Shown here in pieces: positions 2,987-62,791 of a DNA stretch of 64,000 nucleotides. This DNA comes from Leptonemataceae bacterium (GTDB lineage: Bacteria; Spirochaetota; Leptospiria; Leptospirales; Leptonemataceae): assembly GCA_965227295.1 (NCBI GenBank), contig OZ245742.1, forward strand, positions 3,264,001-3,328,000. The letters run 5' to 3'. The position numbers were made by a program, and so were the translations under genes. The number at the start of each line of letters is the position of its first letter. The first letter of the stretch is position 1. The notes below the pieces were generated by a model, which saw only the letters and a program-made list of their open reading frames with translations, was not told where the DNA came from and searched no databases.

Positions 2987-3081
2987 CTCCGGGAAATCTT
3001 GTTTTTGCATTTCCGTCGCCGGCCGTTAAAGTCGACCCCCGGCAGGTCCGAATAGGTACCACAAAAACGGGGTCAACTCTC

Positions 3082-7452: not shown

Positions 7453-7632
7453 ACTCCGAGGACCGAGGGACCGAGGAAGAACAGGGAGGGTTGTAGATCA
7501 GGGTAAGACGGTTGGTGAATCACGTTGTGGTTGTTTTCTGGTTTCAGCATCCAGGAACCGAGCATAACCTGTCATCATTCAAGCGTCGAAAAAGCCTCCC
7601 TCAAAAAAACTCGAACCCTCGGTCCTCGGAGT
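7453..7632. repeat. REP/REPIN-like inverted-repeat element, copy 2
   Basis: ACTCCGAGGACCGAGGGACCGAG (7453-7475) ... CTCGAACCCTCGGTCCTCGGAGT (7610-7632). Confidence 0.85.
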
Positions 7633-7644
7633 TCAAAAAGTCTT

Positions 7645-11365: not shown

Positions 11366-11443
11366 TGATTGAACATATGACCGGGTTCTGCTATCCGGTA
11401 TTGACTGCGGCGCCGGGTGCGGTGGCCGCCGAACGGGCGTTCC

Positions 11444-24113: not shown

Positions 24114-24136
24114 ACTCCGAGGACCGAGGGGCGGAG
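24114..24136. repeat. Single unpaired REP-like arm
   Basis: ACTCCGAGGACCGAGGGGCGGAG immediately after the mutA stop. Confidence 0.7.
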
Positions 24137-24170
24137 CCCTTGCAAATCTTACAATACACGACTGGAATTT

Positions 24171-26335
<2,165 letters not shown>

Positions 26336-26339
<4 letters not shown>

Positions 26340-40503: not shown

Positions 40504-40562
40504 ATTCTGAGTGAGTCGCCAATTCACACAAGGAATAAATCCGTATGATATATAAATCTTGC

Positions 40563-41273
40563 CTATTTCCGCTCGGTTAAAATCTCCATCCGCCGCTGCA
40601 CCGTCTCCAGGAACTCCGCCGGTTTCCGCCCTGCGATCTTCCATACCCGCTCCGGCACCTCACGCAAGACCTGCGCAAACAGCCGCTCGTCTAATATCTT
40701 CTCAACAAACGTTAACAACTTCCATCGATCGTTCTTGCACAGGAAGTGATTCGAGTACAATTGAGCCCGAAGCACGGCCATGGGCACCTGGAATAACGCG
40801 AGGCTGCCGTGGTCGAGGATCACGTAGTTGCCATCCTGGTCCTGCGCAATGTTCCGCGAAATCGTCCCGCGATCCGTGTTCAGAAAAAACAGGTCCAGCG
40901 TGAAGATGGCGTGCAGCACGTCTTGCGGGATCTTCACGTATTCCGCCGCGTCCAGTGTCCGCAGCTCCGGAACATATTCGAGGCCCAGGTTCATTCCAAA
41001 AGATTTCGTGAGGATGTCGTCGAACTCGTCGGTGCCGAAATTCCAGGGGAAACCGTCTTCGATTTCGATCCAGGCACAATCGGGCACGGGCCAACCAAAG
41101 AACTGCGCGATGCGATTCGCGACGAACTCCGAGATCAACGACAGCATGCCGTTGCCGGTCCCGTGCATTTTTACGACGAACTCGCGGTCGTCTTCGGTGC
41201 GCGCGAGCGTGGGAGAGGAACTGCCGGGAAACTGGTGAACGAATTCAGCGAGGCGCGGGTATGACTCTGGCAT
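40563..41273 (-). CDS. HipA-family kinase
   Basis: GSSSP, FVVKMHG, LISEFVA, catalytic NTDR...NI...LDHG. Confidence 0.8.
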   Translation of the reverse strand: MPESYPRLAEFVHQFPGSSSPTLARTEDDREFVVKMHGTGNGMLSLISEFVANRIAQFFGWPVPDCAWIEIEDGFPWNFGTDEFDDILTKSFGMNLGLEYVPELRTLDAAEYVKIPQDVLHAIFTLDLFFLNTDRGTISRNIAQDQDGNYVILDHGSLALFQVPMAVLRAQLYSNHFLCKNDRWKLLTFVEKILDERLFAQVLREVPERVWKIAGRKPAEFLETVQRRMEILTERK

Positions 41274-41292
41274 TGCTATGAATTGAGTGACT

Positions 41293-41673
41293 TCAATCTC
41301 GCGTATACCACCAGGCCCACAGGATCAACGGCAGTTGCAGAATCATGCGCACGATCAACGCCGTTGTGGAAATCTCCATGCCCGCGCCGCCGCTGGTGTA
41401 ATGATAGAGGTTCGCCGGAAACACCGCGATCAAGAGGGCCACGACGCCCCAGGCGGCGAGCTTGCGCGTCGCCGTCGGAATCAGGAGCACTCCGAGCGCA
41501 ATCTCAATCGCGCCGCTCAAATAGACCAACTCCAGGTGCCACGGCAGATACGGCGGCATAATCTTCATGTAAAAGTCGGGATTTACGAAGTGATTTACGC
41601 CGGCCGCCACGTAGAGCAGGGCCATGAGATACAGGAGCACGGTTTTGATCATGACGGCAGAAGACCCGGCCAC
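41293..41673 (-). CDS. DoxX-like membrane protein
   Basis: AGVNHF..PDFY..IMPPYLP...SGAIE...AVFPAN. Confidence 0.8.
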   Translation of the reverse strand: MAGSSAVMIKTVLLYLMALLYVAAGVNHFVNPDFYMKIMPPYLPWHLELVYLSGAIEIALGVLLIPTATRKLAAWGVVALLIAVFPANLYHYTSGGAGMEISTTALIVRMILQLPLILWAWWYTRD

Positions 41674-41826
41674 GATAACTTCGTCAAGTCGCCTGACTTT
41701 TTTGTAGTTTATGGTGCGCTGCTGTTGTGCGACGCAGGAGACATGTAGAGTCCTGTTCTTGCACGATTCTTACAAATCGTACGCATTTGATTGACATTAA
41801 GGATCAGGCGGGCCGAATACCTTTCT

Positions 41827-44800: not shown

Positions 44801-45102
44801 GCCGCGAGTACCTGGAGCTGGCCCCCTGGGATGTGGAGGCCCTGTTCCTGGCGTCCCTGGCCTACAAACAAAACCGCGACTTCATCAACTCCGCCGATCT
44901 TTCCGAACGCCTGCGTTTGCGCGAACCCTGGAACGTGAAGAACCTGCTGCACCTGGCCGAGGTCTACATGCACGCCGGGAACCTCGATCGGGCCGGGTAC
45001 ATTCTCGGTCAGGCGCTTGAGCGCGAACCCTCCAACGAAACCGCGGCCAAGCTGCGGGAGCGCCTGGAAGCCCGCGGCAAGAAGTTAGCGGAAGTCGGTT
45101 AG
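41827..45102 (+). CDS. Membrane sensor with HAMP, SpoIIE/PP2C phosphatase and C-terminal TPR domains
   Basis: Multiple N-terminal TM helices; HAMP DEIGFISHSFNSMV; IGGD, DAMGKS, GSDG, DDLSL; TPR-like tail. Confidence 0.9.
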   Translation: MSLSGFEYLQHPYLNFFSLGALIPAVFVGLLSLFLFTIHKKSSATFWLALSFLWMFIFYFPYFPAATFFDPFMAYHRWFTVPFVLMAGLSFSQFFLHFPERSHPRFATTLLIVELIISVIITAFFYMKTLTVDRIFKFDGHYWDFAADDISRTTGIVILLLVVLTIGLGVWRGITRKDVRWSALGMALAFTVTTIVPTFTNILSRDGAVARGTHQAVINYCVILGFFALAIIYINSTRDRTTFMAKIVGISLAVFLLVLQSVGYLVLNDRDYAYDEVQHREAELVVTKPNYHPEHLRYVVAYDSESAVEARKLDAVGKQSEQVGAGTGFRMVYAREGETFSNKDFEHLRTEFRNAAMRGRIANIQATDLNEFRGKLETVLATAHPQFAGYAALLRSLAEVEATEDTGLSPARDVLARADALHRRVLWTSNKIRGIDAGPEFADAARERLAGLSGEMQPFAAALDAALTNLVARGADDASIKANLLEYLRPFKPLGSRHFRGMGAERVAVGAADASGERDFFVGFQIVRAGTVYEIGFSYLDYRTFAHEASVRIFWLLLGVIVIVLIGFRIFFHGALLSPLDNLLKGVRRVNSGDLDVELPIKVEDEIGFISHSFNSMVSSIRAAKARLQDYADHLEEKVKERTAELKNTLEEVQLLKKQQDGDYFLTSLLIKPLNANRSVSRAVATDFLVEQKKKFEFRERKSEIGGDICMVDQISLKDKEFTVFMNADAMGKSMQGAGGALVLGSVFESIVTRTQLSPDARSIYPERWLKNAFVELHKIFESFDGSMLISLVMGLVDEHTGFLYYINAEHPFTVVYRDGQAEFIERELLFRKLGTCGMEGMVHIPTFRLNPGDLLIAGSDGRDDIVLGVDEVSGERIINEDEEKFLTIVQEANGGLERMRELLLSEGQLSDDLSLLSVRFLGSRDPVPEDDEDTLRLVETAREASQIPAWKDAVMYLRQARLRNPRSPLVLRELVQASYHLHDFKSAGDLGREYLELAPWDVEALFLASLAYKQNRDFINSADLSERLRLREPWNVKNLLHLAEVYMHAGNLDRAGYILGQALEREPSNETAAKLRERLEARGKKLAEVG

Positions 45103-48736: not shown

Positions 48737-50917
48737 TCAGGGCAGCAAATAATCCGTCCGCCTGCGTTCGCCGGGGTTCGGCTTTTCGTATACTTTCCGC
48801 GCATCGTCCGCGCCGGCTTTTTTCACGGCCGTTTCCAGGTCCTTGCGTTTTTCCGCCGGTAGACATCGAAGCGGTGCCTCCAGCTCTTCCAGATCGTCGC
48901 AGTCGAAGACGAACGGCGCGCCGCCGCCGGTGAACGTGGAGCCGAAGGCCATGGGCCCCGCCGGATCGATCCAGGGACCGGTGCGATCCCCCGCCGCCAC
49001 GGCCAGCCCGCCGGCTTTGCCGTAGTCCAGGTCCATGAGCGTGCGGGCGAAGGACAGGGCGTAACCCTGATCGATGTCGTCGCCCTCCTGGTAGTTTTCG
49101 AAGTCGCGATACGTTTCTTCGACTTTGTCGTTCAGATCGAGTTTGTAGATTTCCCCGTCGACGCTGTTGTAGATCCACTTCGTCTCGCCGGTGATGTAGC
49201 CGCGAAAGTCGTCCAGGCGCCAGACCCACAAAGGTGTGTTCAGTTGATATTTGGGGTCGAACAACGAACGCCCGTGCAGCGGAGAGCGGTAGCGGTAGCC
49301 GAGCATGTCGAAGACCGTGGGAAAGATGTCCAGCACCGTGCCGTACTTTAAGAACGCCGGATCGTTTTCCTGCTCTCGCCGCAGCCGGGAAAACGACGGA
49401 TGTCGGAAGACGATGGGTACTTTGACTTCTTCGTTGTAGATGCTGAACGAGTGCCGGAAAAAACCGCGCTCGCCGAAGCTCTCGCCGTGATCGGACATGA
49501 GAACAAACAGCGTGTTCCGGTCCAGGGCGCGCTTGCGGAACTCGTCCACCACGCGATCGGCGACGTGCAGGCCGTAGTCCACGCCGTTGCGATGCCGGCC
49601 CACGGCGAAACGATTTTCGTGGCGGTTGAATTTCTCGGGATGGGGATTGAAGTACGGATAGTGCGAGTTGGTCATCACCACCGTCAGCGAAAAGGGTTGT
49701 TTGCCGTCGCGGTGGCGATCGGCAATCTCCGCGGCCTCGTGGGCGAGGGCGATGTCGTCCAGGCCGAAATGAAACGACGCGTAGGGTTTGCCGGTGTCGG
49801 GGTTCTCTCGCGACGCGAAGTCCTTTTTTTCGGTGACGAACATGTTCAGCCGGTCGAGCAGGATGTTCTCGTCCTCGAACTCGGTGTGATCGGTATAAAT
49901 GAAGTAGTTCACGTAACCGCGTTTTTCCAGAAGTTTGGGCAGCGTCGGTTCCGCGTCCATGTTCTTGTACTTTTCTTCGAAGTCACGCTTGCTGTGCAGG
50001 CCGGTGAACAGGGAGAAGTGTGAGTTCGAAGAGTGCGGTACCGGAACGAAGGCGTGTTCGACGACCAGGGTTTCCGGTGCCTCCTCCGGGAAGTACTCGC
50101 TGATCTCCAGGTCGACGAAGGCCGAGCGCGCGCTTTCGAGGATGATGAACACCACGTTGGTATTTTCCGGGAGCGTAAAACCGAAGCGCCGCTCGAAGTA
50201 CGCGGCGGGTTCGTGCAACCGCGGCTGGAGTTCGTCGGCCGGCGGAAACGGTCCCGGTCCGTCCGGTAATTCTATGACCGCTGTTTCGTGGGCCCGCGGG
50301 TTGATGCGGCCGGCTTCGCCGGGCAACGCGGCGGCGATGACGGGGCCGGCGAGGGCGGCACAGGCCACTCCGCCAAGGATAACGGGTTTGCCGGCGATAG
50401 CCGCCGCCTCGTCCAGACCGAGAAAACGTTTCACCAGCCAGGAGGACGCGGCGGCGAAAACGAAGAGCACTGCGAAAAAGGTCGTGATCCACCAGGGAAT
50501 CGCCGCCACGGTTACGCCGAATTCACCGGCGAGCATGTGCGGTAGTTCGGCGACGGCGTAGAGGGCCATGGCGGGATCGATGTCGATGCGCATGTAATGG
50601 AACATGGCCGTGCGCGCGAAGTGCCAGAAGACCAGGACGCTCGTGAGGACGGCGGCGGTGTTCCGGAAGATGCGGGCTTGCCCGGCCAGCAGGGCCGCGG
50701 CGCCACCGGCGTAGAGCAGGCCGGCGTATCCGGCCAGGGCCAGGAGCGGGCGCAGACCGTAAATTGCTTCCCCGCCCAGGCGCCGGGAAAGGCGGTTCCA
50801 GAAGGCGTCGGCGTCGCTTAGGTTGAACGCGGCAATCATTAAGACGTCGCCCAGGTAGGCGACGAAAACCAGGATGGTCCAGAAGAGTACGGCGCGGATC
50901 AGCGGATGCTTAACCAT
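48737..50917 (-). CDS. Membrane-anchored sulfatase/LTA-synthase-family protein
   Basis: About 5 N-terminal TM helices; NVVFIILES, PHSSNSHFSLFTG, SHYPY, SDHGESF, DIFPT. Confidence 0.85.
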   Translation of the reverse strand: MVKHPLIRAVLFWTILVFVAYLGDVLMIAAFNLSDADAFWNRLSRRLGGEAIYGLRPLLALAGYAGLLYAGGAAALLAGQARIFRNTAAVLTSVLVFWHFARTAMFHYMRIDIDPAMALYAVAELPHMLAGEFGVTVAAIPWWITTFFAVLFVFAAASSWLVKRFLGLDEAAAIAGKPVILGGVACAALAGPVIAAALPGEAGRINPRAHETAVIELPDGPGPFPPADELQPRLHEPAAYFERRFGFTLPENTNVVFIILESARSAFVDLEISEYFPEEAPETLVVEHAFVPVPHSSNSHFSLFTGLHSKRDFEEKYKNMDAEPTLPKLLEKRGYVNYFIYTDHTEFEDENILLDRLNMFVTEKKDFASRENPDTGKPYASFHFGLDDIALAHEAAEIADRHRDGKQPFSLTVVMTNSHYPYFNPHPEKFNRHENRFAVGRHRNGVDYGLHVADRVVDEFRKRALDRNTLFVLMSDHGESFGERGFFRHSFSIYNEEVKVPIVFRHPSFSRLRREQENDPAFLKYGTVLDIFPTVFDMLGYRYRSPLHGRSLFDPKYQLNTPLWVWRLDDFRGYITGETKWIYNSVDGEIYKLDLNDKVEETYRDFENYQEGDDIDQGYALSFARTLMDLDYGKAGGLAVAAGDRTGPWIDPAGPMAFGSTFTGGGAPFVFDCDDLEELEAPLRCLPAEKRKDLETAVKKAGADDARKVYEKPNPGERRRTDYLLP

Positions 50918-50969
50918 GGGAAACGATGGCGGGCACGCGGGGCCGTGTCGAGTATTAAAACTCTTGAGG

Positions 50970-51100
50970 GGGTAGCGGAGGACCGAAAGTGACCCGGCAG
51001 CGCTGCCCGGAGGGTGGCGCGGTCGCCGCAGGCGAGCCGGGGCACGGTTTCGCGCGTAGCGCGAAATTCGGGCCGGAGCGAGGGGGAGCGCAGCTCCCCC
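50970..51100. repeat. GNA-triloop hairpin cluster, copy 2
   Basis: TCGCC-GCA-GGCGA, TTTCGCGC-GTA-GCGCGAAA, GGGGGAGC-GCA-GCTCCCCC; shares TCGCGCGTAGCGCGA with 33535-33549. Confidence 0.6.
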
Positions 51101-51180
51101 ATCCAAATGAATTTTTTGTCCGCCTGTTCCTTCCTCTGTTTCGCTTTACAGCTTTTTGGATGCGGAAAATCTTTTGTTTC

Positions 51181-53604
51181 ATGACCGCGCCCGCTTTGAT
51201 CATCACCCAGTGTTTGCAGAACGACTTCGTTGCCCCGCTCAATCGCTACGAGGCGTTGCCGAATCAACTGCACGTCGGCTACGACGAGGCACGGCGTTTG
51301 ATCGGCGAAGATCCCCTGGACGGGCCGGTGCATCGCGTCATGGAATGGGCCTACAACACGTCGGCGGAGCAACTGGGCATCGTGCACATCCGCGACTGGC
51401 ACAACGCCGCCGACGAAAAACAATCGGCGCATTTGAATCAGTTCGGTCATCATTGCATCAAGGATACGCCCGGGGCGGACTTCGTCTTTCGCCAGGTGAT
51501 GCAGGGCGATCGAGAGCATCACGTCGTGGACGCGTCGGGACTCAACGACTTCGTGGATACGAACCTGGCGGCGGTCCTCGAACCCTATCGCGGCAAACGG
51601 GTGCGCGTGGGTTTGCTCGGCGTGTGGACCGAGGCGAAGATAACGTTCCTGGCCTACGATCTGATCACGCGTTACCCGGAGTTCGACGTGGTGGTGTGCA
51701 GCGCGCTTACGGCGAGTTCGTCGCGCCAGGCGCACTTTACGGCCTTAGAACAACTTCAGAATATCTTAGGCGTCCGCTCGTTTCCCTCGGTGGCGGCGTT
51801 TACCGAATACCTCACCGGCGAACAGCCCGCCGGGGCCATCGCGGACCGCATTCGTAATTCCCGCATCGACGCCTCGCACTTGAAGTTCGACCCCCCCGAC
51901 TATTCCTTAGAAGACGTTGATATGCAGTTACTGTTGTATCTGTTCCGCGACGCGAAGTCCGCGAACTTTCGCGTGCTGGACGGCGGTTTCTCCGGCAACG
52001 TCGTGCTCGGCGCACAGTCCCTGGATCGCTACGGACATTCCCAGGTGCCCCACGTTGTGAAGATCGGACCGCGGGACAGCATCGCCCGGGAGCGCATTTC
52101 GTTCGAGCGGGTGCAGGAGGTCCTGGGCAACAGCGCCCCGAACGTCGTGGATTTTGCGGAGGTCGGCGAGCGCGGCGCCATCAAGTACCGGTACGCCGGT
52201 ATGCTCGGCGGCGACGTGAAGACGTTTCAGAAATTGTATCAGTCGAACGACAGCGTTGAGGGCCTGCAGCCGCTCTTTCGCATTCTGGACGTCGTCTTCG
52301 TGAAACAGCTCGGCCGGTTCTACGAGGCCGCGGGGCGGGAACGCCTGAATCTGCTCGAATACTACGACTTCCAGGCGAAGTACGCGCCCGGTGTCCGTAA
52401 ACGCGTGGAAGCGCTGCTCGGCGGTCCGGTCCCGTCCCTGGAGGACCTGGACCCCGCGCAGCCCGAGCAGATCGAAAGCATGGAGCTGGTGCCGGGCGTA
52501 TCGATCCCGAACGTCTGCCTGTTTTACGAGCGGGACCTGCCCGACCTGGTTGAGGCCTACGCCGTGCCCCACTACCTGGCTTACGTGCACGGCGACCTGA
52601 ACGGCGCAAACATCCTGGTGGACGCCTCCGGCAACGTGTGGTTGATCGACTTCTTTCATACGCATCGCGGGCACGTGCTGAAAGATCTGATCAAGCTCGA
52701 AAACGATCTGTTGTTCATTTTTACGAAGATCGAAAACGAAGCGGAACTACGCGAGGCCCTGCGGCTCACGGACGTGCTGCTGGAAGGCGAGGACCTCGGT
52801 CAACCGCCGGTCCCGGCACGCGTCGGCGAATTCAAGAGCACTAAGATTCAGCGGGCGTATCTTACGGCGTGCCGCCTGCGTTCGTACTACCCGGAACTCA
52901 TCGAGCTCGACCGCGATCCGTATCAGCTCTACGCCGGTATCGTGCGTTACGCCATGCATACACTTTCGTTCGAAGAATCCAACGAATGGCAGCGGCGCTG
53001 GGCCCTCTATGCCGGTGCCGTTTGCGCCGATCGGATTCGCTCCGCGCTGCGTTTCACCGCGAAGCTGCGGGTGGATGTGGTCGCAACGCCGTCGCGGGAA
53101 GGTCGAGCGGGCCGGGCGGGTGAACTGGGGCTCACGATTCTTCCGGGTCGCAAGGATCGTTCGCGCAAACTGGACGCGGACCTGGCCGTGCTCGACGAAG
53201 AAGGCTTTCGCACGGTGCTGTGTTTGTTGACCGAGGATGAGTTCGAACGTTACGGCATTCCGGAACTGCGGAAGGCGTATGCCGATCGCGGCTTCAGTGC
53301 TCGCTACTTCGCAATTCCCGACCAGAACCCGCCGTCCTCCCTGGCGGAGGCCGATGAGGTCGTCGAGTGGATGGACGGCGTCTTAGGTTCCGGTGAGAAT
53401 CTCTTAGTCCATTGCGTGGGCGGCCTCGGTCGCTCGGGCACCATGGCGGCGTGTTATCTCTTAAAATTCGGCGGCTTCACGGATCCCGCCGCGGCCATCC
53501 AGGCCGTGCGGGAGGCCCGCTCGCCGCGAGCCATCGAAACGCGGCGGCAGGAAGAGTTCATCGAAGAATATGCGCGGTTTGTCTCCGTAGCGGCAACGCA
53601 GTGA
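51181..53604 (+). CDS. Three-domain fusion: isochorismatase/nicotinamidase fold + protein-kinase-like (APH-type) domain + Cys-dependent protein phosphatase
   Basis: QNDF, RDWH, HC..TPGADF; GGFSG, VVKIG, HGDLNGANIL, IDF; IPD, HCVGGLGRSG, AIETRRQ. Confidence 0.85.
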   Translation: MTAPALIITQCLQNDFVAPLNRYEALPNQLHVGYDEARRLIGEDPLDGPVHRVMEWAYNTSAEQLGIVHIRDWHNAADEKQSAHLNQFGHHCIKDTPGADFVFRQVMQGDREHHVVDASGLNDFVDTNLAAVLEPYRGKRVRVGLLGVWTEAKITFLAYDLITRYPEFDVVVCSALTASSSRQAHFTALEQLQNILGVRSFPSVAAFTEYLTGEQPAGAIADRIRNSRIDASHLKFDPPDYSLEDVDMQLLLYLFRDAKSANFRVLDGGFSGNVVLGAQSLDRYGHSQVPHVVKIGPRDSIARERISFERVQEVLGNSAPNVVDFAEVGERGAIKYRYAGMLGGDVKTFQKLYQSNDSVEGLQPLFRILDVVFVKQLGRFYEAAGRERLNLLEYYDFQAKYAPGVRKRVEALLGGPVPSLEDLDPAQPEQIESMELVPGVSIPNVCLFYERDLPDLVEAYAVPHYLAYVHGDLNGANILVDASGNVWLIDFFHTHRGHVLKDLIKLENDLLFIFTKIENEAELREALRLTDVLLEGEDLGQPPVPARVGEFKSTKIQRAYLTACRLRSYYPELIELDRDPYQLYAGIVRYAMHTLSFEESNEWQRRWALYAGAVCADRIRSALRFTAKLRVDVVATPSREGRAGRAGELGLTILPGRKDRSRKLDADLAVLDEEGFRTVLCLLTEDEFERYGIPELRKAYADRGFSARYFAIPDQNPPSSLAEADEVVEWMDGVLGSGENLLVHCVGGLGRSGTMAACYLLKFGGFTDPAAAIQAVREARSPRAIETRRQEEFIEEYARFVSVAATQ

Positions 53605-53662: not shown

Positions 53663-54172
53663 CTAATCATCATCGTAACGTTCGGATTCACCCCGCTCTT
53701 TGGCGTCGTGATCCGCCGGAGAACCGGTTGTGGAATCCGTCCGCAGGACACCATGGCGAATCTGGCCTCCTGCGTTTGCGGTGAAGACAACCGCGGGCAG
53801 CGCCATGACGTTGATCGCAATCAGTACGGCGGCCCAGGTACGCGAGACGTCGCGCATTCTGGTGTATGCCAGGGCGACCAGGGCTGCGGCACCGGCGATG
53901 CCGAGGCCGACCAGGGCCCACACGGCCGCTTCTTCGTGCGCTTCCAATAAAGCTTCGCTGGTGCCGATGATGTGTTCGGCGGTTTCTTCGGCCGCTTCGC
54001 CCGCGAGGTACGTCGCGCCTCCGGCGACGGCCACCAGGATCGAAGCAAGCAGGCCCGCGATCCAGAGGTCTCGGGAACGTCGCCAGGCGGCCGCGACAAG
54101 CAACGCGAGGACGACGAACGGTCCCACGGCGGGAATGTGGACAAGGATCAAGTGTGCGTGAATCGCATTCAT
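53663..54172 (-). CDS. His-containing membrane protein (DUF2231-like)
   Basis: HAHLILVHIP, GEAAEE, HEEAA, GGQIRH; four TM helices; AAGGAG RBS. Confidence 0.7.
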   Translation of the reverse strand: MNAIHAHLILVHIPAVGPFVVLALLVAAAWRRSRDLWIAGLLASILVAVAGGATYLAGEAAEETAEHIIGTSEALLEAHEEAAVWALVGLGIAGAAALVALAYTRMRDVSRTWAAVLIAINVMALPAVVFTANAGGQIRHGVLRTDSTTGSPADHDAKERGESERYDDD

Positions 54173-54300
54173 AAGTCAGATCTCCTTTTTTGCACCGAAC
54201 GTGTCGGGCAGCAGTTTGATCTGATTATGCGCTGCGCGAGATGGATTTACAATAGGACGGATGTACGTGCGGTGGGGACATTTGTCCCGGGCCGGAAAAC

Positions 54301-54552
54301 TTAATCTTCCAGCTTACTTTTCGAAGACTCTCCCGGATACCACAGGAGTTCGATTTCGATTTCACCCGCGGCGGCGCCGTCGCTGCTTTCGCACTGGAGC
54401 TTGAGTCGCATTTCCTCGGGCGCGTCCACCAGGTGGCCGCCGATGCGGAACTTACCGGCTTCCACGGCGTCCGCCAGGCGCCGCAGGCGTTTTGCGGCGC
54501 GACTCCGATCGGTGACGTACTTCGCCTGAAATAACGTGAGTTCTTTTTTCAT
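54301..54552 (-). CDS. Amphi-Trp domain protein 2
   Basis: RSRAAKRLRRLADAVEAG...EIEIELLW; ATGA overlap with the upstream paralog; GGAGG RBS. Confidence 0.75.
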   Translation of the reverse strand: MKKELTLFQAKYVTDRSRAAKRLRRLADAVEAGKFRIGGHLVDAPEEMRLKLQCESSDGAAAGEIEIELLWYPGESSKSKLED

Positions 54553-54815
54553 GCCGCTCCGTCCTCCTGCCACTCGATCGGCCAGCTGAGTTCCACTTCG
54601 ATTTCAAAATGTTGCGGCGCCCCGAATTCCGCGGGCGGGTCCTCGTGTTTCTCTTCCAGTTCGATCTTCATGTGAAACGTTTCCGGAATGGCCAGGCCGT
54701 CTTCGCCGGGTTGGAACGTGCCGCCTTCGATTTGAGCGGCCAGTTCGCGCAGGCGTGCTGCGATCGCCGACCGGGAGGATTTTTGAAACGAACGGAATTC
54801 CAGATCGCCGACCAT
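54549..54815 (-). CDS. Amphi-Trp domain protein 1
   Basis: RSAIAARLRELAAQIEGG...FEIEVELSW; AGGAG RBS. Confidence 0.75.
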   Translation of the reverse strand: MVGDLEFRSFQKSSRSAIAARLRELAAQIEGGTFQPGEDGLAIPETFHMKIELEEKHEDPPAEFGAPQHFEIEVELSWPIEWQEDGAA

Positions 54816-54868
54816 GCGAGTTAGATCTCCTGAGTGCCTTACCGTGTCAACGTACTCAACAGGTTAAC

Positions 54869-57800
54869 TTAAGAAAGTTTCGCCGTTGTTGCAGGCTTAA
54901 GGTATTCTCGCGCGGCCTTGCTGAAGGCGAGCATCATCTTTCGTAAATCGCCGCCGTAGCGCGCGGGATCGGGGCCGCGATTCTGGGTCCGTGCCCGCTG
55001 CAATTCGTCCCGGCGTTCGTCTTCTTTGAACGGATTCCAGAGACCGAAGCCGATGTTGTTTTCGATGAGTACCGGTTTCCAGTCGGTAATGTCCTCGGGG
55101 CCGGCCCGGCTCGTCGCGCCGTTGTCGGCGAGGACCGTCATGGATGTGAGCCGGTCCGCGATGCTGCCGACGCCGTCCCGCGCATATTCGTAACCCACGA
55201 TTTCCGGCGTCTCGATGAGTTCGTCGTCTCCGCCGATGCGCAGCACCGGCGTGTCCAGAAAATCGTGCATCATGTAGCGCGGCCGGCTGTACGGATGCCC
55301 CGTTCGATCGTGTCGCTCACGCAGACGACGCCCCAGTAATTGCTGATGATCTTCAATTACGCCGGGATCGTCCGGAGATGTCAGGCGCGACCACAGTGCG
55401 TCCGAGCGTAACTCGATGGCGTGCATGCTGGCCAGGGCCGCTTCCCGGCGCCGGCTGGAGATCGTCTCCGCGGTGGCGGCGTCTCGCGCAAAGGCCGGCC
55501 GCCACTTGAACAACACACCGCCCCGACCGACGTTGGAGACCGCGGCCCGGGACGCCACCGTGAGTTCCAGCACGTACTCCGGTGCTTCGTCCACGTAAAC
55601 GACGATCACGCGTGAGTAAGCGAAGAACTCCGCGTCGGCCGGCGCGGCGATGCCGTGTTTGCGAATGAGTTCCTGGCGCAACCGGCGCAGGTACTCCGGC
55701 GACGCCCACGCCGCGGGATTCGCCGGGATGAGTCGTTGCAGTACCTGGTCGTCGATCCAGCCGACGCGCGCCATGTTCCGCGCCTGGGTGAGCACGTTTT
55801 CCTCCAGCACGTTGCCGGCCCCGTCCCGCAGTTGGGCCGGGAAGGCCAGGCGCCCGCCGGACTGTCGCGCTGCTTTCGAAATGCATTTCCAGTGAAAGTG
55901 AGTGAGGCCGCCGGGAAAACGAGCGCTGCCCCGGCTGAGTTCGGCGACGATTTCGTCTTCGTCCCGGGGCGTGCCGTCCGCGTGAAACTGGTATGATTTT
56001 TTCCAGTGCAACTCCTCGGGTACGCTGACGCCGCGGCCGGGGGCGTGGATGCGCGCGTGTTCGAGTTTGTCGTACATTAAAATGTTGTGAATCCAGGCTT
56101 GTACCGACGGCAGCCCGATGCGTTCGTCGAGGCCCTGCAGGTAATAGGGCGCGCCGTGGAACGGAAAGGACAGGCAGTTTCGTAGCGGTCGTTCGAAGCG
56201 TACGCCGATCATCACGCCGCGCGGTTCGTCTCCGGCGTTTGCATGAAGTCCCGGCGGCAGCGTTAAGTGCTTTTGATGTTCACTCAGTCGGCGAAAGACT
56301 TCGGCATCCACGTACATGAATCCGTGGGGGATGCGCAGGCTTTCGTCATTCTCGTCGAAAAGCAGGGCGCGGCCGAGCACCCAGTTGCACGCGTCTCCGG
56401 GATGTTCGCGGTTGTAGAGCGGGTTTTCTTCGAAGAACGTTAAGAGATGCGGTCGACCCGGCGGGCAGACGATGGCCACGGCCGGACGGTTGCCGTCGTC
56501 GAAGAGTTCGGCGGCCTTGCCCGCGCTGACGTCAAAGATCCCCCGGGCCCGGTGGCCCTGCTGATCGACGTGAGCCAGATCACGCTTGTGCGTGTACCAG
56601 AACCATTCGCGCTCGTGTAAGGGATCACTCGCGGCGGGCCCGCCCACCGGCGGTGTCTCCGGAGTGCCGAGCAGGGCATCGACGTAAGCCGGCGGTGCCT
56701 GGCGCAGATACGTGCGCGAACGAAAGAGGCGATCGAAGTAGCGACCGAGCCAGCGATGTTCCTCGACCTGAATTGCGAAGATCTCTTCGCGGGTGAAGGG
56801 CGTCCCCTCGCCGAGCCACGATCCCATGATGTAATCGTAGTCGCTGAAGCCGCTGCCCGCCATCGGCGAGAAGATGCGCCAGGGGTAATCGAAGACGTGG
56901 TCGTAGATCGTCTCCGCGAAGAATTCGGCCACCGCCAGATGCAGGCGGCGAGAGATAGTTTCCTGCTCCGTATTAAGTTCGTCTGAGGTTAAATTAAAAA
57001 GATCCGCGGTCTTGATCAGGGCGAAAAGCACGTCGAAGAGACCGGCTACGCGCGCGACAGGTCGCAGCATATCCTTTTGACCGGCGCAGCGGTAGGCGAG
57101 GCGGCCGAAGTCTCCCGGATCGTCACCGCGGCCGGCGAGTTCCAACCAGGCCTCGGCCTCGGGATTGCGGCCGGCGTCGAAGAGCAACCGACCGCGCGTG
57201 AGCATCGCTCGTTTTTCCGGCGTGTCCTCGCCCTGGTAACATTCTTCGACGATCGCGTGAAAGGCCCGTTCAGTAATCGCCAGAAATTCGCCGCAGCTTT
57301 CCCGGGCGATGCCCTGCGTCTCCGGACCGAGGTCCACGCTGTTCAGTATTTCCGCGGCGCGATCACACAGGGCTTCCACGGTATTCGGCGTTGCGTCGGC
57401 CAGGCCTTTGCGATAGCCGCTCACCTGGCGACGAATGGATCGCGCGCGCCTCTGCAAAAGATGGCGTTCGAGAGCGCTGCCCGCGGATTCGTCGACGGCT
57501 TCTTCGCGTTTCTTAATGGAAGTGCGCTCACCGTAGACTTCCCGCATGGCACCCACCGGCGCCGTGTACTCCGGGCGCACGAAGCATGCTTCGACGCGTT
57601 GAACCGCATCGGGTCCAAAGCCCGCGTGCTCATCTTCTTTGCCGTTCAGCCGCCGCGTCGCCTCTTCGAAGCGTCGCTTTTCCAGGGCGACCTCCGCTGC
57701 CGGGCGGCCGTTGACCAGGAAGAGCCCGCCGGCGACGAGCCACAAACCGTAATCCAGCGTACCTTTGCCGGTGAGCAGATGAAACCAGCCTTCGCGCATT

Positions 57801-60800
57801 AAGGCATGGCGTTCGGACCAGTTGTAGAACCCGCCGCCGCGCCACCATTCCGCGGAGTGGATGGCCAGCTCTTCTTCGTCCCGGGCCTTGCGGTAACGAT
57901 CCCGGGCCAGTTCGCGGATGACGGTCAGGCATTCTGTTAACTTCTCTTTATCGCCGGCTAAGAGGGTGTCCCGGTAGGCGGCCGCGGCCTCGCATTCTTC
58001 GCGGACGTCGCGCTCGTAGTACTGTAGTTCGTCGAAGCCCACTGCCGGTGACAGATAATAACCGCCCAGGGACAGCCAGGTCTTGATCGCGGTGCGGTCG
58101 AGGGCGGTCTTGCGGCCCTGCACCGGGGCGTCGAAGAGAATGAGAGCGCTTTCGGGCCGTCCGTCTCGCATGTCCGCTGCCGCCCGCGGCAGGTCGTCCA
58201 GGATGGTACGCGCGCTATTTCGCCGGGGATGGCGTTCGATCTCCACCCCCTCGTCTTCGCTGCCGGTGAGTTCGTCGTAGTGCACGATGACCGGCAACAC
58301 GTCGGAACCGCGGAAGGCCTCGCGCAGATCGGTGCCCGGCCCGGCACGATACTCGGGATTCTTGAGGCGGACGTCGAAGACGAGGGCGTGCACCAGACCG
58401 CCCAGGGGTCGTGCGAGTTCCGCGTAACTTTCGTCCGGTAGATCTTTGAGGGTGGTCCAGGAGCGGAGGCGAGCGCCGTAGGTCAGGCAGTTCGCGTCGA
58501 TCTCCTCGTCGCTCATGGACCAGGCAGGGTTCGCGCCGCGCCGGCTGTAACGTGCCAGGCAGGCGTGAATGAGCCGCCGCACCCGATCGGCCCAGGTGGA
58601 AAGCGTGCTCCCGGAAACGTAGTTGTAGACGGACTGCGTGGACATGTTGAACGGCGTGAACAGGCGGATGTCCGCCGGGGCCGAGGTCCGCGGGTATTGC
58701 TGCGCCAGATCCCGCAGGTCGTCGTCGCTCAACTCCCGGCCGTCGTCGTAGAGGCGCTCGGCCAGTAGCTTACGCTGAGTTGTATCTTGTGCATCGAAGC
58801 CGTTCAACAGTAATTGCGCCGTCGCTTCACCCTCGCGATCCAGGCTGGAGTAGATGTGTTCGAGCAGGTGCCGGCCGTCGTGCACGCCGGCGGCGGCCAT
58901 CAGCTCAAACATGCGCAGGCCCATGCTGAGTCGCGCATCGGAGACGGGTTTGTATTCGACGGGCAGCGGGATCACGGCGTCGGAGTAGGCGGGGCTTTCC
59001 GGGCGACGCTCGCGAACGATGTCGAAGGCCTGGCGCAAAAGAAAGATGAGGCTGACCGGCACGAAGCGCATGCGCGACTCGAGCACCTGTAAGATCTTAC
59101 CCTGATACACGCCGTGCACGGAACGCAGGAAACCGCGCGGGTCCACGCGCGGGTCGCGCACGCCGATGCGGTCCGCCGCGGTGAAGAAAGCCGCGGAAGG
59201 CAGCATGCCCCGCGGATGAAAGAGCGAGGGTTCACCGCCGGCCTCGAAGTGCTCGGCCGGTTCGAAGCCCGGTCGACGTTCCGCCGCTTCCACGGCGGTG
59301 AACACACTCTCGCAGCGTTGCGCAAAATCGCGGACGGCGGTTTCGTTCATGACGCCGGAGAGACGATCGGTTAACCTGCGGCGCAGAGATGTTAGCGAGG
59401 ACCAGCGATCCACCGGCAGGCCGGCGTAACGATAGACCTCGTCCCGGGTAATGACGTTCACGAAGTACCAGTAATAGATGTCCTTGGGTTGACAGAAACC
59501 CGTGGAACCCGCACCGCCGGGACGGACTTTGATTTCCGGGCGTTCGGTGCTGTCCGCGGCCAGGCGCTGGAAGTGGCCGACACCGATGGACAACTGCAAC
59601 GCCTGGAAGATGTGCGTGAGGGCGAGCTGGGCTTCCATGATGCCGTTCTCAAACGGTTTCGATTCTTCGGCGTGGCGTACGTCTTCGAAAGAACGCACGT
59701 CGTAATTGTAAAGATCGTAAAAGTTCTCCATGGCGATGCGGGCCGCCCGGTCCGCGGGGCCGATCCACTGCGGCCACTCCTGCACGCTGATGCGTTCCCA
59801 GAATCCCAGGTCCACCCGCGACGGGCCGTAGCCGCGATGGTACTTCTTGTTGCCGCCGCGCGCCTCGTACGAAAAGAGCGGATCGTTCTTGAGCACGAAG
59901 AGCGGCAGCGGCTCGTCCTCGATCGTGCCGGGAGTTTCGCGGTACTCGTCCTCGCGGATCAGCGTGCCGTTCGTGCGCAGACGATAGCGCAGCAGCACCT
60001 CGTCGCGATGAGTGCTCATGCCGAGATCCAGCTTCATGCGGATGATGCGCGGCAGGCTGTCCTCGCTCTGGCCGGCCGTGTACCATTCCATGGTGGGTCC
60101 GAGTGCGTGTTCCTGGATTGCACGCTGCCGGGCCAGGATGCGCAGCTCGTTCTGAAATTCCAGCCCGTACACGGGGTGATTCTGAACGTCATTTTCCGAC
60201 AGAACGCCGTCTTCGATGTCCCAGCCCAGTTCCGGGTTGCGCCGGATGATTTGTTCGAGCGCCGTGCCCCGGAGTTCTTCGCCGTGATTTGCCAGCGCCG
60301 CCTGCGCCGCCGGCGGTTCTTCCGCGTAGCGTCGTTCGCGATGCGGCAGGCTCTGCCAGAGAACGAAACGTTTGGCCGTCTCCCGGCTCACGTCCCGGTT
60401 GCGCAGGATGAGCTGCAGCACCGCGCGTTCCACGGCGGCCTCGGAATCGTCGGCACCGCTCTCGCCGATGATCTCGTCGATGCGATAGTCCAGGCGAAAC
60501 TCCTCGATGACCGAGCGGCCGATCTCCGCAAAGTGCCGGCGAGTTTCTCCCAGGTGTTCGCGGGCTTCTTCTTCTAAGGTACGACCGCCGTAAGTGAAGG
60601 CCGTGGTGAGATTCGTGCAGGTCATCTCGTCGTCGAACCAGAAGCCGGCGCAGAGATCCGTAAGGCCGGCGGCCTGAGTCGTCAGCACAATCCAGAGCGG
60701 TACCGAACGACGGCGGCGGAGCGCCAGGTCTTCGCGGAGAACCGCGTCGCGAATGTCCCTTGCACGAAAGGTGTACGCAGTCGAACTTAAGGCCGTATCG

Positions 60801-62791
60801 ATGCCTTCCAGGCGCACGTCCAGTTCTTCGAGCCGGAGGCCGGCGAGGCTCCGATCTTGGTCCAGGTCCGCGAACAAGGCCTCAACGCGCGGCAGCGAGT
60901 CCGCTTCCATGCGTTGGGCGATTTCCCGCCGACGTTCACGCCAGCGCTGATGGACGAGGGCGCTCAGGCCGGCGACGAGTTCCCGCACCCGGGACTGCTC
61001 TTTGGATTCCCGCAGGGCCTGAAGCACGTCTTCTTCGCGTGCCCCGGGATTCGCTGAGTTCATTTCATCGTCGATTAAGCCGAGCAAACGCGCCGCGTAG
61101 TCCCGGGCCACGGCGACATGCTCGCTCAGGATCACGTCGGCGATATTTTTGCGAAAGGACTGGCCGATCAATCGAATGGCCTTCTCGAAGTTTTCCTGTT
61201 CGATGACGATGGGCGCGCCGCCGGCCTCTGCGTCGGTTTCGTGAATGTAAAGGCCGATGGCCTCGAGGATCACGTCCGCCGCTTCGAACCAGGCGTTGTC
61301 GGATTCGCCCAGGACGTTGTGTCCGCCGGCCCGCAGGGATTCTTCAATCAAACCTTCGGTGGTGTCGAAGGGGTCCACACCGAGGGCCGTCGTGGCCAGG
61401 TTCCAGACCCCCGTCGCCGACGCGCGCTGAATGGAAACGCTGAGCGCGGCGTCGCGCCCGCCGCTTCGGTCCAGGCGTTTGTAAACGGCGTCGACGGCCT
61501 CTCGTACGTCCGCGGCAAAACGGTCCGCAAATTCACGGAGGCGTTCCACGCCGTGCTGCTTCGGCTGCGCGGGGGCCCGGCCGCGGCGCTTTTGGTAGTA
61601 AGATCGGACGGCGGCGTGGATACGGCCGTGGTAGTCGTCGATGCGCTGTTCGAAGCGACGCAGATTTCCCAGCAGCCGCGCCTTCGAAACGGAAGGGGCG
61701 CTGAGCACGGCTTCCAGATCGCGAAGACCGGCGCTTAACTTCGAACGCAAAGCAGTTAGATGTTCGCGCAGTTCTTCCGGGCCTGCGTCGTCGCGGCGGG
61801 AATGCAGCAGGCGTTCCATCTTACGGACCTTCTTGCGCAGTTTCTCCACGTCATGGAGGATCTGCGCTTCCGCCGTGAGCAGAGTGATGAAGTACGACGC
61901 GCGGCTGAAGCGGCTGACAAACAGCGTGCGCCCGTCTTCCAGGCAGCGTTCGCGCAGGCGACGGACGTTGGCCCGGCTGAGTTCCGCATCGAAGTCCGCG
62001 GAGGCATAGACCTCGGTAAGCAGGCGGTGGTTGCGTTCGTCGGGATTCTTTTCGAAGAAGACGACGTCGCGCAGGGCTTCGAGGGAGACGGGCCAGTCGA
62101 TGGTGCTCGCGGCGCGCAGCCAGGCGATGCGCTGTTCGCGCCAGGCCGCGCCGCCGGAGTTCAGGCGTTCGTCGAAACAGTCGGCGATGGTGAGGGCGAA
62201 GACGTTGTCGCTGTCGAGCCAGGGGCCCCGTAATACGTGATCGAGAGAAGTTAGCAGCCCCGGTTCCTTTTTTCGGACCGTGTCGAGAAACTCGAAGCAG
62301 CCGAGCAGGGCCGGGACGAACCCCCGGCGCTCTTTCTTTTTGGCCGGCAGCACTCCCGCCGCGAATAACCGGACCACGGCGGCGAGTACGGCGAGTCCGC
62401 GCTCATCGTCGCCGCGCGGTACGTAGCTCTCGCCGTGGAGGCGAACAGTCGTCCCCTGTGAGACGGCGTCCTGCATGCGGGCCAGAACGCCGGCGTCGAT
62501 GACGATGCGGGGATCATCCTGTGTGACTGTGACGAGGTGTTCTGCGCCGTGGACATAGCGCAGAGGAATCTTGCGCAAACGTTTGCGAACTTCTTTCGCG
62601 AGCTTCGAAGAGAGTTCCTCCAGCAACGTTTCGCCGGAAGCGATGAATCGTTTTGCCGCGACGGCGTCTCTGGAGTCGGCGGGTCCCGGGGACGCCGCAC
62701 GCCGGGCCTGCCAGCGATCGGCAGGTTGTCGGGGCGCTTGATCAACGATGGTTAAGAATGCGGTTTCAGTCGATGTTCGATCGGAGGGCAT
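54869..62791 (-). CDS. 2640-aa protein: expanded nucleotide-sugar dehydrogenase-like scaffold + C-terminal ATP-grasp domain
   Basis: GYGPSRVDLG, AEESKPFEN, PGGAGSTGFCQPKDIYY, EYKPVSDARLS, EAFRGSDVL; ATP-grasp MYDK, KAARQSGGR, VLQRLI, SNVGRGG, VLIENN. Confidence 0.75.
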   Translation of the reverse strand: MPSDRTSTETAFLTIVDQAPRQPADRWQARRAASPGPADSRDAVAAKRFIASGETLLEELSSKLAKEVRKRLRKIPLRYVHGAEHLVTVTQDDPRIVIDAGVLARMQDAVSQGTTVRLHGESYVPRGDDERGLAVLAAVVRLFAAGVLPAKKKERRGFVPALLGCFEFLDTVRKKEPGLLTSLDHVLRGPWLDSDNVFALTIADCFDERLNSGGAAWREQRIAWLRAASTIDWPVSLEALRDVVFFEKNPDERNHRLLTEVYASADFDAELSRANVRRLRERCLEDGRTLFVSRFSRASYFITLLTAEAQILHDVEKLRKKVRKMERLLHSRRDDAGPEELREHLTALRSKLSAGLRDLEAVLSAPSVSKARLLGNLRRFEQRIDDYHGRIHAAVRSYYQKRRGRAPAQPKQHGVERLREFADRFAADVREAVDAVYKRLDRSGGRDAALSVSIQRASATGVWNLATTALGVDPFDTTEGLIEESLRAGGHNVLGESDNAWFEAADVILEAIGLYIHETDAEAGGAPIVIEQENFEKAIRLIGQSFRKNIADVILSEHVAVARDYAARLLGLIDDEMNSANPGAREEDVLQALRESKEQSRVRELVAGLSALVHQRWRERRREIAQRMEADSLPRVEALFADLDQDRSLAGLRLEELDVRLEGIDTALSSTAYTFRARDIRDAVLREDLALRRRRSVPLWIVLTTQAAGLTDLCAGFWFDDEMTCTNLTTAFTYGGRTLEEEAREHLGETRRHFAEIGRSVIEEFRLDYRIDEIIGESGADDSEAAVERAVLQLILRNRDVSRETAKRFVLWQSLPHRERRYAEEPPAAQAALANHGEELRGTALEQIIRRNPELGWDIEDGVLSENDVQNHPVYGLEFQNELRILARQRAIQEHALGPTMEWYTAGQSEDSLPRIIRMKLDLGMSTHRDEVLLRYRLRTNGTLIREDEYRETPGTIEDEPLPLFVLKNDPLFSYEARGGNKKYHRGYGPSRVDLGFWERISVQEWPQWIGPADRAARIAMENFYDLYNYDVRSFEDVRHAEESKPFENGIMEAQLALTHIFQALQLSIGVGHFQRLAADSTERPEIKVRPGGAGSTGFCQPKDIYYWYFVNVITRDEVYRYAGLPVDRWSSLTSLRRRLTDRLSGVMNETAVRDFAQRCESVFTAVEAAERRPGFEPAEHFEAGGEPSLFHPRGMLPSAAFFTAADRIGVRDPRVDPRGFLRSVHGVYQGKILQVLESRMRFVPVSLIFLLRQAFDIVRERRPESPAYSDAVIPLPVEYKPVSDARLSMGLRMFELMAAAGVHDGRHLLEHIYSSLDREGEATAQLLLNGFDAQDTTQRKLLAERLYDDGRELSDDDLRDLAQQYPRTSAPADIRLFTPFNMSTQSVYNYVSGSTLSTWADRVRRLIHACLARYSRRGANPAWSMSDEEIDANCLTYGARLRSWTTLKDLPDESYAELARPLGGLVHALVFDVRLKNPEYRAGPGTDLREAFRGSDVLPVIVHYDELTGSEDEGVEIERHPRRNSARTILDDLPRAAADMRDGRPESALILFDAPVQGRKTALDRTAIKTWLSLGGYYLSPAVGFDELQYYERDVREECEAAAAYRDTLLAGDKEKLTECLTVIRELARDRYRKARDEEELAIHSAEWWRGGGFYNWSERHALMREGWFHLLTGKGTLDYGLWLVAGGLFLVNGRPAAEVALEKRRFEEATRRLNGKEDEHAGFGPDAVQRVEACFVRPEYTAPVGAMREVYGERTSIKKREEAVDESAGSALERHLLQRRARSIRRQVSGYRKGLADATPNTVEALCDRAAEILNSVDLGPETQGIARESCGEFLAITERAFHAIVEECYQGEDTPEKRAMLTRGRLLFDAGRNPEAEAWLELAGRGDDPGDFGRLAYRCAGQKDMLRPVARVAGLFDVLFALIKTADLFNLTSDELNTEQETISRRLHLAVAEFFAETIYDHVFDYPWRIFSPMAGSGFSDYDYIMGSWLGEGTPFTREEIFAIQVEEHRWLGRYFDRLFRSRTYLRQAPPAYVDALLGTPETPPVGGPAASDPLHEREWFWYTHKRDLAHVDQQGHRARGIFDVSAGKAAELFDDGNRPAVAIVCPPGRPHLLTFFEENPLYNREHPGDACNWVLGRALLFDENDESLRIPHGFMYVDAEVFRRLSEHQKHLTLPPGLHANAGDEPRGVMIGVRFERPLRNCLSFPFHGAPYYLQGLDERIGLPSVQAWIHNILMYDKLEHARIHAPGRGVSVPEELHWKKSYQFHADGTPRDEDEIVAELSRGSARFPGGLTHFHWKCISKAARQSGGRLAFPAQLRDGAGNVLEENVLTQARNMARVGWIDDQVLQRLIPANPAAWASPEYLRRLRQELIRKHGIAAPADAEFFAYSRVIVVYVDEAPEYVLELTVASRAAVSNVGRGGVLFKWRPAFARDAATAETISSRRREAALASMHAIELRSDALWSRLTSPDDPGVIEDHQQLLGRRLRERHDRTGHPYSRPRYMMHDFLDTPVLRIGGDDELIETPEIVGYEYARDGVGSIADRLTSMTVLADNGATSRAGPEDITDWKPVLIENNIGFGLWNPFKEDERRDELQRARTQNRGPDPARYGGDLRKMMLAFSKAAREYLKPATTAKLS

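Follow-up and report, generated by a model that had tools for sequence, protein, structure and literature searches.

A giant protein with a nucleotide-sugar-dehydrogenase-like module and a predicted ATP-grasp domain in a Leptonemataceae genome is the core-only form of a rare, unannotated family

The described systems closest to the protein reported here are nucleotide-sugar 6-dehydrogenases and ATP-grasp ligases. The protein, P0001, is encoded in a 64,000-nucleotide (nt) stretch of a Leptonemataceae bacterium genome (GCA_965227295.1, contig OZ245742.1, forward-strand positions 3,264,001 to 3,328,000; hereafter the window). Its gene, at window positions 54869..62791 on the minus strand, is a single open reading frame (ORF) of 2,640 amino acids (aa) with an ATG start, no internal stop and its stop codon within these coordinates. 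The 6-dehydrogenases of uridine diphosphate (UDP)-N-acetylmannosamine (ManNAc) and other nucleoside diphosphate (NDP)-N-acetylhexosamines (HexNAc), such as Escherichia coli WecC, Staphylococcus aureus Cap5O (3ojl/3ojo) and the Pyrococcus horikoshii (4r16) and Methanosarcina mazei (3g79) enzymes, share with P0001 an A-E-x-x-K-x-x-E-N helix, a G-G-x-C-x-P-K-D/E loop, the Y-K-x3-D-x-R that follows, the order of these motifs and a helical central domain. P0001 differs from them in having no detectable Rossmann domain, P-S-R in place of P-E-R, helical inserts of hundreds of residues and a far longer chain. With the ligases Ddl, LysX/ArgX, RimK and GshB it shares the whole three-subdomain fold, as modelled, and the Lys, Gly-rich loop, Asp and Glu-x-Asn; unlike them, it carries ~200 residues of insertions and has no Pfam ATP-grasp match. 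P0001 thus shows homology, in parts of its chain, to two known superfamilies, in a variant arrangement.

A fusion of an ATP-grasp domain to a carbohydrate enzyme has been described in the Campylobacter jejuni capsule pathway. In the available part of that description, the C-terminal TupA-like ATP-grasp domain of Cj1438 amidates the C6 carboxylate of glucuronic acid (GlcA) (PMC11800379). By its chemistry as described there, ATP-grasp amide formation on GlcA C6, Cj1438 resembles what an earlier note on this DNA had proposed for P0001, one polypeptide that oxidises an NDP-sugar and amidates the product. Unlike P0001, Cj1438 has a GT2 glycosyltransferase as the partner of the ATP-grasp domain, no dehydrogenase-like module and a length of 776 aa (PMC11800379).

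P0001 is a genuine single-chain, multi-domain enzyme, whose putative class we assign from its sequence and models, and it is the core-only form of a rare, wholly unannotated family of giant proteins. All motifs quoted in the earlier note are present in its translation where that note had placed them (Table 1), and the G+C content over the gene (0.62-0.64) differs little from the value in most of the window. When 5.8 billion clusters were searched through a k-mer index with the whole length of P0001, two relatives besides the query came back, P0002 (25% identity over 2,623 columns, E 1e-100) and P0003 (23% over 1,127 columns, E 6e-35). Residues 960-2150, compared exhaustively by phmmer with 1.84 billion representatives, matched 89 proteins at E<=1e-3, of which 68 pass E<=1e-10 and 36 pass E<=1e-30, and domain scans of these family hits revealed no ordinary UDP-sugar dehydrogenase. 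Close relatives include P0094 (34% identity over 2,625 columns) and P0005 (38% identity), the latter from a metagenome-assembled genome (MAG) of Lokiarchaeota; the longest member, P0006, has 7,944 aa. A scan of GTDB genomes identified four family loci (L001-L004) in MAGs of Sumerlaeota, Planctomycetota, an uncultured bacterium and Aerophobetes. The L002 protein and P0002 are near-identical in architecture and possibly not independent. The family as a whole is spread over Planctomycetota, Sumerlaeota, Aerophobetes, other bacterial MAGs and the one Lokiarchaeota MAG.

The relatives that have names are called 'hypothetical protein', with the sole exception of P0094 ('galactokinase/mevalonate kinase-like predicted kinase'). 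A search for shorter proteins with residues 2080-2640, again k-mer based, found no stand-alone relative of the C-terminal domain (ATP-grasp 1). The author of the earlier note knew of no characterised protein with this architecture; likewise, we found none among the relatives' names, nor did full-text searches of open-access papers and bioRxiv return any description of a dehydrogenase-like and ATP-grasp architecture. Curated domain annotation is absent from all 2,640 residues, which indicates that domain databases have a gap at this family.

Sequence comparison shows that residues ~977-1110 share ancestry with the central catalytic domain of the 6-dehydrogenases of UDP-sugars and are closest to the UDP-ManNAc/UDP-HexNAc group (WecC, Cap5O, 4r16). 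In searches against the PDB, family profiles with 3, 7 and 22 members matched 4r16 (E 4e-8, 8.4e-6 and 3.3e-11, the last with two stretches) and 3g79 (E 4.5e-8, 4e-7 and 9.6e-7). Cap5O (3ojl) was matched by the 3-member (E 4.4e-6) and 22-member (E 2.6e-5) profiles and absent with the 7-member one, and the deepest profile also brought in the UDP-glucose dehydrogenases 4a7p and 2y0c/d/e. The significant stretch always paired residues ~977-1110 of P0001 with enzyme residues ~145-300. In agreement, hhalign aligned the family to E. coli WecC with 90% probability (E 1.5e-6) over 131 columns (P0001 977-1109, WecC 145-275), and 32 members to WecC plus Ugd with 97.4% probability (E 1.2e-11). The Pfam model of the central domain (PF00984) matched 3 of 13 relatives in one scan and 7 of 20 in another (best E 6.7e-7). 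P0001 as a single phmmer query reached 4r16 at E 0.022, and the ESM Atlas, searched with residues 640-1330, yielded clusters of the UDPG_MGDP_dh central domain (scores 0.86-0.87), which we treat as a lead only.

Structure prediction points to the same enzymes. For each AlphaFold model an alignment of 20-22 rows was used, with a P0001 fragment as the first row against full-length relatives. The AlphaFold2 model of residues 640-1600 (20 rows) has a mean predicted local distance difference test score (pLDDT) of 73.3 and a predicted template-modelling score (pTM) of 0.56, and the top 11 ranks of its Foldseek search against the PDB are all nucleotide-sugar dehydrogenases (Cap5O, 4r16, CalS8 and UDP-glucose dehydrogenases; probability 0.75-1.00). 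For the putative sugar-nucleotide-binding region, Foldseek aligned 311-330 columns with Cap5O and 4r16 at weak E-values (0.016-0.05), and the collinear stretches found with hidden Markov models (HMMs) are individually insignificant. The earlier note had expected the dehydrogenase fold at about 58000-60700; PDB profiles and hhalign, with Foldseek less firmly, locate the module inside that interval, at ~58262-59863.

Conservation at this module was tallied with our own HMMs over 94 family sequences, 75 of which match the core, and counts are given over non-gap rows (Table 1). By analogy with UDP-glucose dehydrogenases, we take C1100 to be the nucleophile, the conserved Lys, Asn and Asp to serve catalysis and the K..D.R residues to bind the sugar nucleotide. 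The catalytic Cys and Lys, together with the Glu-x-Asn of the ligase domain, are the residues on whose conservation among homologues the earlier note had staked its reading, and C1100, K1045, E2577 and N2579 are invariant.

Residues ~2084-2600 are modelled as a complete ATP-grasp fold in which the ATP/Mg-binding Lys, Asp and Glu-x-Asn are intact. The model of residues 1560-2640 (22 rows, pLDDT 83.7, pTM 0.76) is all-alpha to ~2079 and alpha/beta thereafter; in the modelled part, what lies outside the two modules is made of long helical stretches. Its Foldseek search against the PDB returned 10 matches at E<=1e-3, and the list consists nearly entirely of ATP-grasp enzymes with a probability of 1.00; it includes the D-Ala:D-Lac/D-Ala:D-Ala ligases 1ehi (E 1.9e-4) and 3lwb, GshB (1gsa), DcsG and synapsin. 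Target-normalised template-modelling (TM) scores reached 0.64 for LysX/ArgX (5k2m) and 0.63 for RimK (4iwx). The alignments span ~540-560 columns against targets of 273-360 residues, which points to a complete domain enlarged by insertions. The Lys of its 'DK' motif (K2242) is kept in 32/32 full-length members, and the conserved Lys, Gly-rich loop, Asp and Glu-x-Asn presumably bind ATP and Mg2+. On the evidence of the AlphaFold model and Foldseek, the domain falls at 54992-56542, close to the 55000-56500 anticipated for it. Among other comparisons, P0002 matched GSH-S_ATP at E 0.11, and the ESM Atlas search with the C-terminal 561 aa found nothing better than an unrelated family (score 0.80). 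An hhalign match to RimK (80.7%) was rejected for P0001 because it stems from columns of a second ATP-grasp domain present in the relatives.

The same HMMs were used to survey the architecture of the 94 sequences, 43 of which have at least 2,000 aa. The dehydrogenase-like core and ATP-grasp 1 occur in the same order in 42 of the 43; the exception, P0009, starts in the middle region. The term 'fusion', applied to P0001 by the earlier note, is therefore misleading: the two modules form a core that an old family has kept, and two genes were not recently joined. Longer members such as P0094 (4,406 aa), P0003 (4,332 aa) and P0006 share with P0001 the N-terminal helical region, the dehydrogenase-like core, the middle helical region and ATP-grasp 1, in that order, but unlike P0001 they add a RimK/YheCD-like ATP-grasp domain (ATP-grasp 2) and often a galactokinase-like GHMP kinase. 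A second ATP-grasp domain is present in 18 and a GHMP kinase in 10 of the 43. Among 13 long relatives, Pfam recognises GHMP_kinases_N in 8 and, weakly, a YheCD/ST-type ATP-grasp in 2, and both kinase and second ATP-grasp in P0094. All the nearest relatives of P0001 (P0005, P0006, P0007 and P0094, the full-length member of P0004's cluster) carry ATP-grasp 2, and P0001 ends in the linker ahead of its position. Six members (P0006, P0023, P0042, P0058, P0017 and P0025) have 2,000-4,000 additional N-terminal residues before the conserved core, and P0025 has an odd CsrA-like match at residues 1224-1247.

The recurrent theme of the family loci is sugar and uronate metabolism. Immediately downstream of the giant gene, L001, L002 and L004 each have a homologue of ATP-grasp 2, and the one in L004 has a weak RimK-family match (E 5.5e-4). 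Galactokinase-like GHMP genes are found in L001 and L002, a phosphoglucomutase-like gene in L002, and a LacI or ROK regulator directly upstream of the giant gene in L001 and L004. The surrounding genes encode GH88, GFO/IDH/MocA oxidoreductases, esterases of the glucuronyl-esterase/AXE type, a C5-epimerase-like protein and an MGH1-like hydrolase.

The best overall explanation, which we put forward tentatively, is a core-only giant enzyme in which a dehydrogenase-like site and an ATP-grasp ligase act in the ligation of carboxylates in sugar metabolism, such ligation being its likely role. The dehydrogenase-like site would bind a nucleotide-sugar or sugar acid, and Cys1100 would be used covalently, as a thiohemiacetal or thioester, as in relatives. 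The ATP-grasp domain would activate a carboxylate, for which the C6 group of a uronate is the obvious candidate, as an acyl-phosphate and ligate it to an amine. The strict conservation of the residues disfavours a pseudo-enzyme or scaffold. If the modules cooperate in this way, the family would represent an unrecognised route to make or modify sugar acids (uronamides, glyco-amino-acid conjugates or a polymer) and a natural case of a UDP-sugar dehydrogenase core that works without a nicotinamide adenine dinucleotide (NAD) domain. C1100, K1045, K2306 and E2577 are well-defined candidate catalytic residues.

Several results weigh against this explanation, and most of them concern the NAD site. 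The dinucleotide-binding motif G-x-G-x-x-G/A is absent from P0001 upstream of residue 990, and in the 32 full-length members no such motif aligns: 20 have none and 12 have one each, at unaligned places. Gly columns conserved in at least 60% of members ahead of residue 990 are isolated ones, no scanned family member matches PF03721 or PF03720, and hhalign gave no confident alignment to WecC 1-144. Judged from its sequence, P0001 thus fails as a bona fide nucleotide-sugar dehydrogenase, with no NAD domain detected and scores below curated cut-offs. The earlier note's claim that it oxidises an NDP-sugar may be wrong, and the absence of an NAD-binding motif makes NAD-dependent oxidation doubtful as a first step. 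The structure models cover residues 640-1600 and 1560-2640, and an aberrant NAD site may lie within residues 1-639, outside both. The strand that the earlier note had equated with the EST..PGTT strand of the dehydrogenases fares unevenly. The IVLTT motif is present and T704 and T705 are invariant, but the model is of low confidence at VLTT and hhalign pairs the WecC STSPVGST with P0001 ~925-935 instead (also with low confidence), so that the equivalence of the strands does not follow.

Other points on the same side touch both modules and their context. Confidence of the WecC alignments is confined to P0001 ~977-1110. The Foldseek E-values of the 640-1600 model are 0.016-0.24, none at or below 0.001, with target-normalised TM of ~0.3, and the model is poor around C1100 (pLDDT 42-59) and over its first 77 residues. 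Throughout the family, Ser (PSR) stands where the P-E-R/F strand of the dehydrogenases has Glu. For P0001, searched whole and as five overlapping segments at E<=10, no Pfam or NCBIfam model reached its cut-off: Pfam gave sub-threshold noise only (TPR_4, DUF4630), with no ATP-grasp match, and NCBIfam UDPMaNacDH_Arch (archaeal UDP-ManNAc dehydrogenase) scored 12.5 bits against a cut-off of 750. No ATP-grasp chain was among the PDB hits of the 3-, 7- and 22-member profiles, and hhalign of ATP-grasp 1 gave 30% with DdlB (E 5.5e-4, 144 columns in the correct register), 0.1% with RimK and 10.5% with GshB. Neither ATP-grasp 2 nor a GHMP kinase was found in the window by tblastn and HMM searches of its six-frame translation, and none of three window neighbours of the giant gene (the GH57-like, membrane-protein and TCAD9/SAK genes of Table 1) occurs in L001-L004. 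Finally, no computation points to a substrate.

Since no NAD domain was found, we weigh about equally a reading without redox chemistry, with C1100 taking over the acyl-phosphate of the ATP-grasp domain as a thioester. The protein would then be an NAD-independent variant that lost the redox step and kept sugar-nucleotide or sugar-acid binding and the Cys, which would pass the captured acyl group to an acceptor. In effect, the thioester half-reaction of UDP-sugar dehydrogenases would be run as an acyl transfer. The missing Rossmann motif next to strictly conserved Cys, Lys, Asn and Asp/Glu is what such a variant would look like, and both modules are found together in nearly all the long members. 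Even so, we rate it as possible but somewhat unlikely: we know of no precedent for an NAD-independent acyl transfer of this kind, the modules are ~1,000 residues apart and were modelled as separate segments, and an NAD site of aberrant form could sit ahead of residue 640, where the models start.

It is unlikely, though still plausible, that the modules serve different steps in a scaffolded metabolon for sugar salvage or alpha-glucan-related metabolism, with the ATP-grasp domain acting as a kinase or ligase on an unrelated substrate and the giant helical regions organising partners such as the GHMP kinase, mutase and GH57 proteins. In the models, roughly half of P0001 is helical and without a catalytic signature. 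Partners also differ between loci, a GH57-like gene runs over the giant gene's start, and L001 and L004 have sugar-responsive regulators upstream. A metabolon is harder to reconcile with the co-occurrence and order of the modules, whose strict conservation across a very divergent family suggests coupled chemistry, and no partner is common to the window and the other loci.

A more elaborate proposal, which we consider improbable, is a carrier-free assembly enzyme: the ATP-grasp domain would activate a sugar acid or other carboxylate, and the NAD-less module would capture it as a Cys1100 thioester and transfer it to an amine or hydroxyl. The long forms, with ATP-grasp 2 and a sugar-1-kinase, could in this way build an undescribed glyco-amide metabolite or polymer. 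A role in inter-genomic conflict or defence is very improbable. It is prompted by the neighbour at 50989..53604, which has TCAD9, isochorismatase and DSP-PTPase (PTP-SAK) domains, and by the scatter of the family over distant phyla, including the Lokiarchaeota MAG. However, neither P0001 nor this neighbour has a PADLOC match, the neighbour is convergent with the giant gene, separated from it by another gene and absent from L001-L004, and the contexts elsewhere are those of sugar metabolism. P0001 as a single sequence falls below every curated family cut-off, but a spurious or non-functional ORF carrying chance motifs can be dismissed on account of homologues at near-full length (E 1e-100 and better), invariant catalytic columns and confident models.

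Table 1. Features of P0001 and of the genes next to it (nt positions refer to the window; residues refer to P0001)
Feature	Window position (strand)	Residues	Conservation, basis or remarks
N-terminal region	60692..62791 (-)	1-700	No recognised domain; few conserved columns, mostly Arg
IVLTTQAAGLTD	60656..60691 (-)	701-712	T704/T705 in 32/32 full-length members
All-helical insert between VLTT and PSR strand	59882..60664 (-)	~710-970	Model pLDDT mostly 84-95; DSSP helices
Nucleotide-sugar-dehydrogenase-like catalytic core	59462..59863 (-)	~977-1110	PDB profiles, hhalign, PF00984, residue tallies
Core residues: PSR, K1045/E1048/N1049, G1098-x-C1100-x-x-K1103-D1104		PSR 990-992	Residue tallies
GYGPSRVDLG		987-996	Translation; P990/S991/R992 conserved in 70-71 of 71
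AEESKPFEN	K1045 codon 59657-59659	1041-1049	Translation; K1045 72/72; E1048, N1049 71/72 each
PGGAGSTGFCQPKD	C1100 codon 59492-59494	1091-1104	Translation; G1098 70/70; C1100 69/69; K1103 69/69; residue 1104 Asp 45, Glu 24, of 69
Dehydrogenase C-terminal (NDP-sugar-binding) domain match	58262..59074 (-)	~1240-1510	Large helical inserts; Y1280, K1281, D1285, R1287; G1495, D1497
EYKPVSDARLS		1279-1289	Translation; Y1280/K1281/D1285/R1287 65/65
EAFRGSDVL..VHYDEL		1491-1508	Translation
Middle all-alpha region	56555..58114 (-)	1560-2079	Invariant H1965..P1970 and R2070; no known fold assigned; model and conservation
ATP-grasp domain	54992..56542 (-)	~2084-2600	Model, Foldseek, residue tallies
DK		2241-2242	Translation
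KAARQSGGR		2306-2314	Translation; K2306 53/53; S2311, G2312 53/53; R2314 52/52
VLQRLI		2350-2355	Translation; Q2352 50/52
RVIVV		2394-2398	Translation; R2394 52/52
SNVGRGG		2419-2425	Translation; N2420 51/51; G2422 and G2425 listed with N2420
DFL		2510-2512	Translation; D2510 48/48
LIENN		2575-2579	Translation; E2577, N2579 48/48
Upstream gene P0091	62766..64000 (-)		C-terminal 410 aa of a 1,033-aa GH57-like protein with FN3-type region; runs off the window
Stretch 3' of the giant gene	53663-54868 (-)		696-nt gap with only a 90-codon ORF, then the gene of a 169-aa predicted membrane protein
871-aa multi-enzyme neighbour	50989..53604 (+)		Isochorismatase, TCAD9 ('ternary complex associated domain 9', kinase-like, APH/Kdo-kinase hints), C-terminal DSP-PTPase ('Swiss Army Knife', PTP-SAK)

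The gene upstream of the giant gene overlaps its start by 26 nt at the stop. The portion of this protein encoded inside the window (P0091) had no PDB, Pfam, NCBIfam or PADLOC match and was identified only via full-length relatives, among them P0112, a 100% identical full-length form. P0112 itself scores below the GH57 cut-off (E 0.0031), and a relative, P0115, scores above it (24.8 bits against 21.2). Glyco_hydro_57 was matched in 4 and fn3 in 3 of 70 relatives of ~1,000 aa, among the relatives listed. Those with a name are all called 'hypothetical protein', and one is from a Spirochaetes MAG. On the other side of the giant gene, no minus-strand terminator-like site was found after its end, and the membrane-protein gene has its own sigma-70-like promoter match (54252-54224). 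The available part of PMC7159879 contains none of the terms 'TCAD', 'Swiss Army' and 'ATP-grasp'.

The multi-enzyme (SAK-like) ORF and a sulfatase ORF at 48737-51106 (-) overlap by ~118 nt at their mechanically assigned starts, and the true start of one or both is probably further in. Further away, overlapping genes for a HEPN_RiboL-PSP protein and a HipA_2-like kinase lie at 39871-41273 (-), where the GC content of the window is at its minimum (0.521 at 40001-42000). The kinase matches the PADLOC candidate PDC-M66A (E 1.9e-13), and the pair may be a toxin-antitoxin or defence island. A 1,103-aa HAMP-SpoIIE(PP2C)-TPR protein is encoded at 41791-45102 (+); the near co-extensive antisense ORF of 1,058 aa at 41797-44973 (-) has no family match and is probably a shadow ORF of high-GC DNA. 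At the window edge, an ORF of at least 1,003 aa (2-3010, -) runs off the sequence, with no Pfam family at E<=1e-5. The window also contains a vWA-STAS fusion protein at 11417-13048 (+) and a methylmalonyl-CoA mutase operon at 22107-27355 (+), with small-type and large (B12-binding) subunits followed by a MeaB GTPase. Two further proteins, encoded at 7525-8865 (+) and 36444-37694 (+), belong to DUF1574 and DUF1577, families defined on Leptospira proteins.

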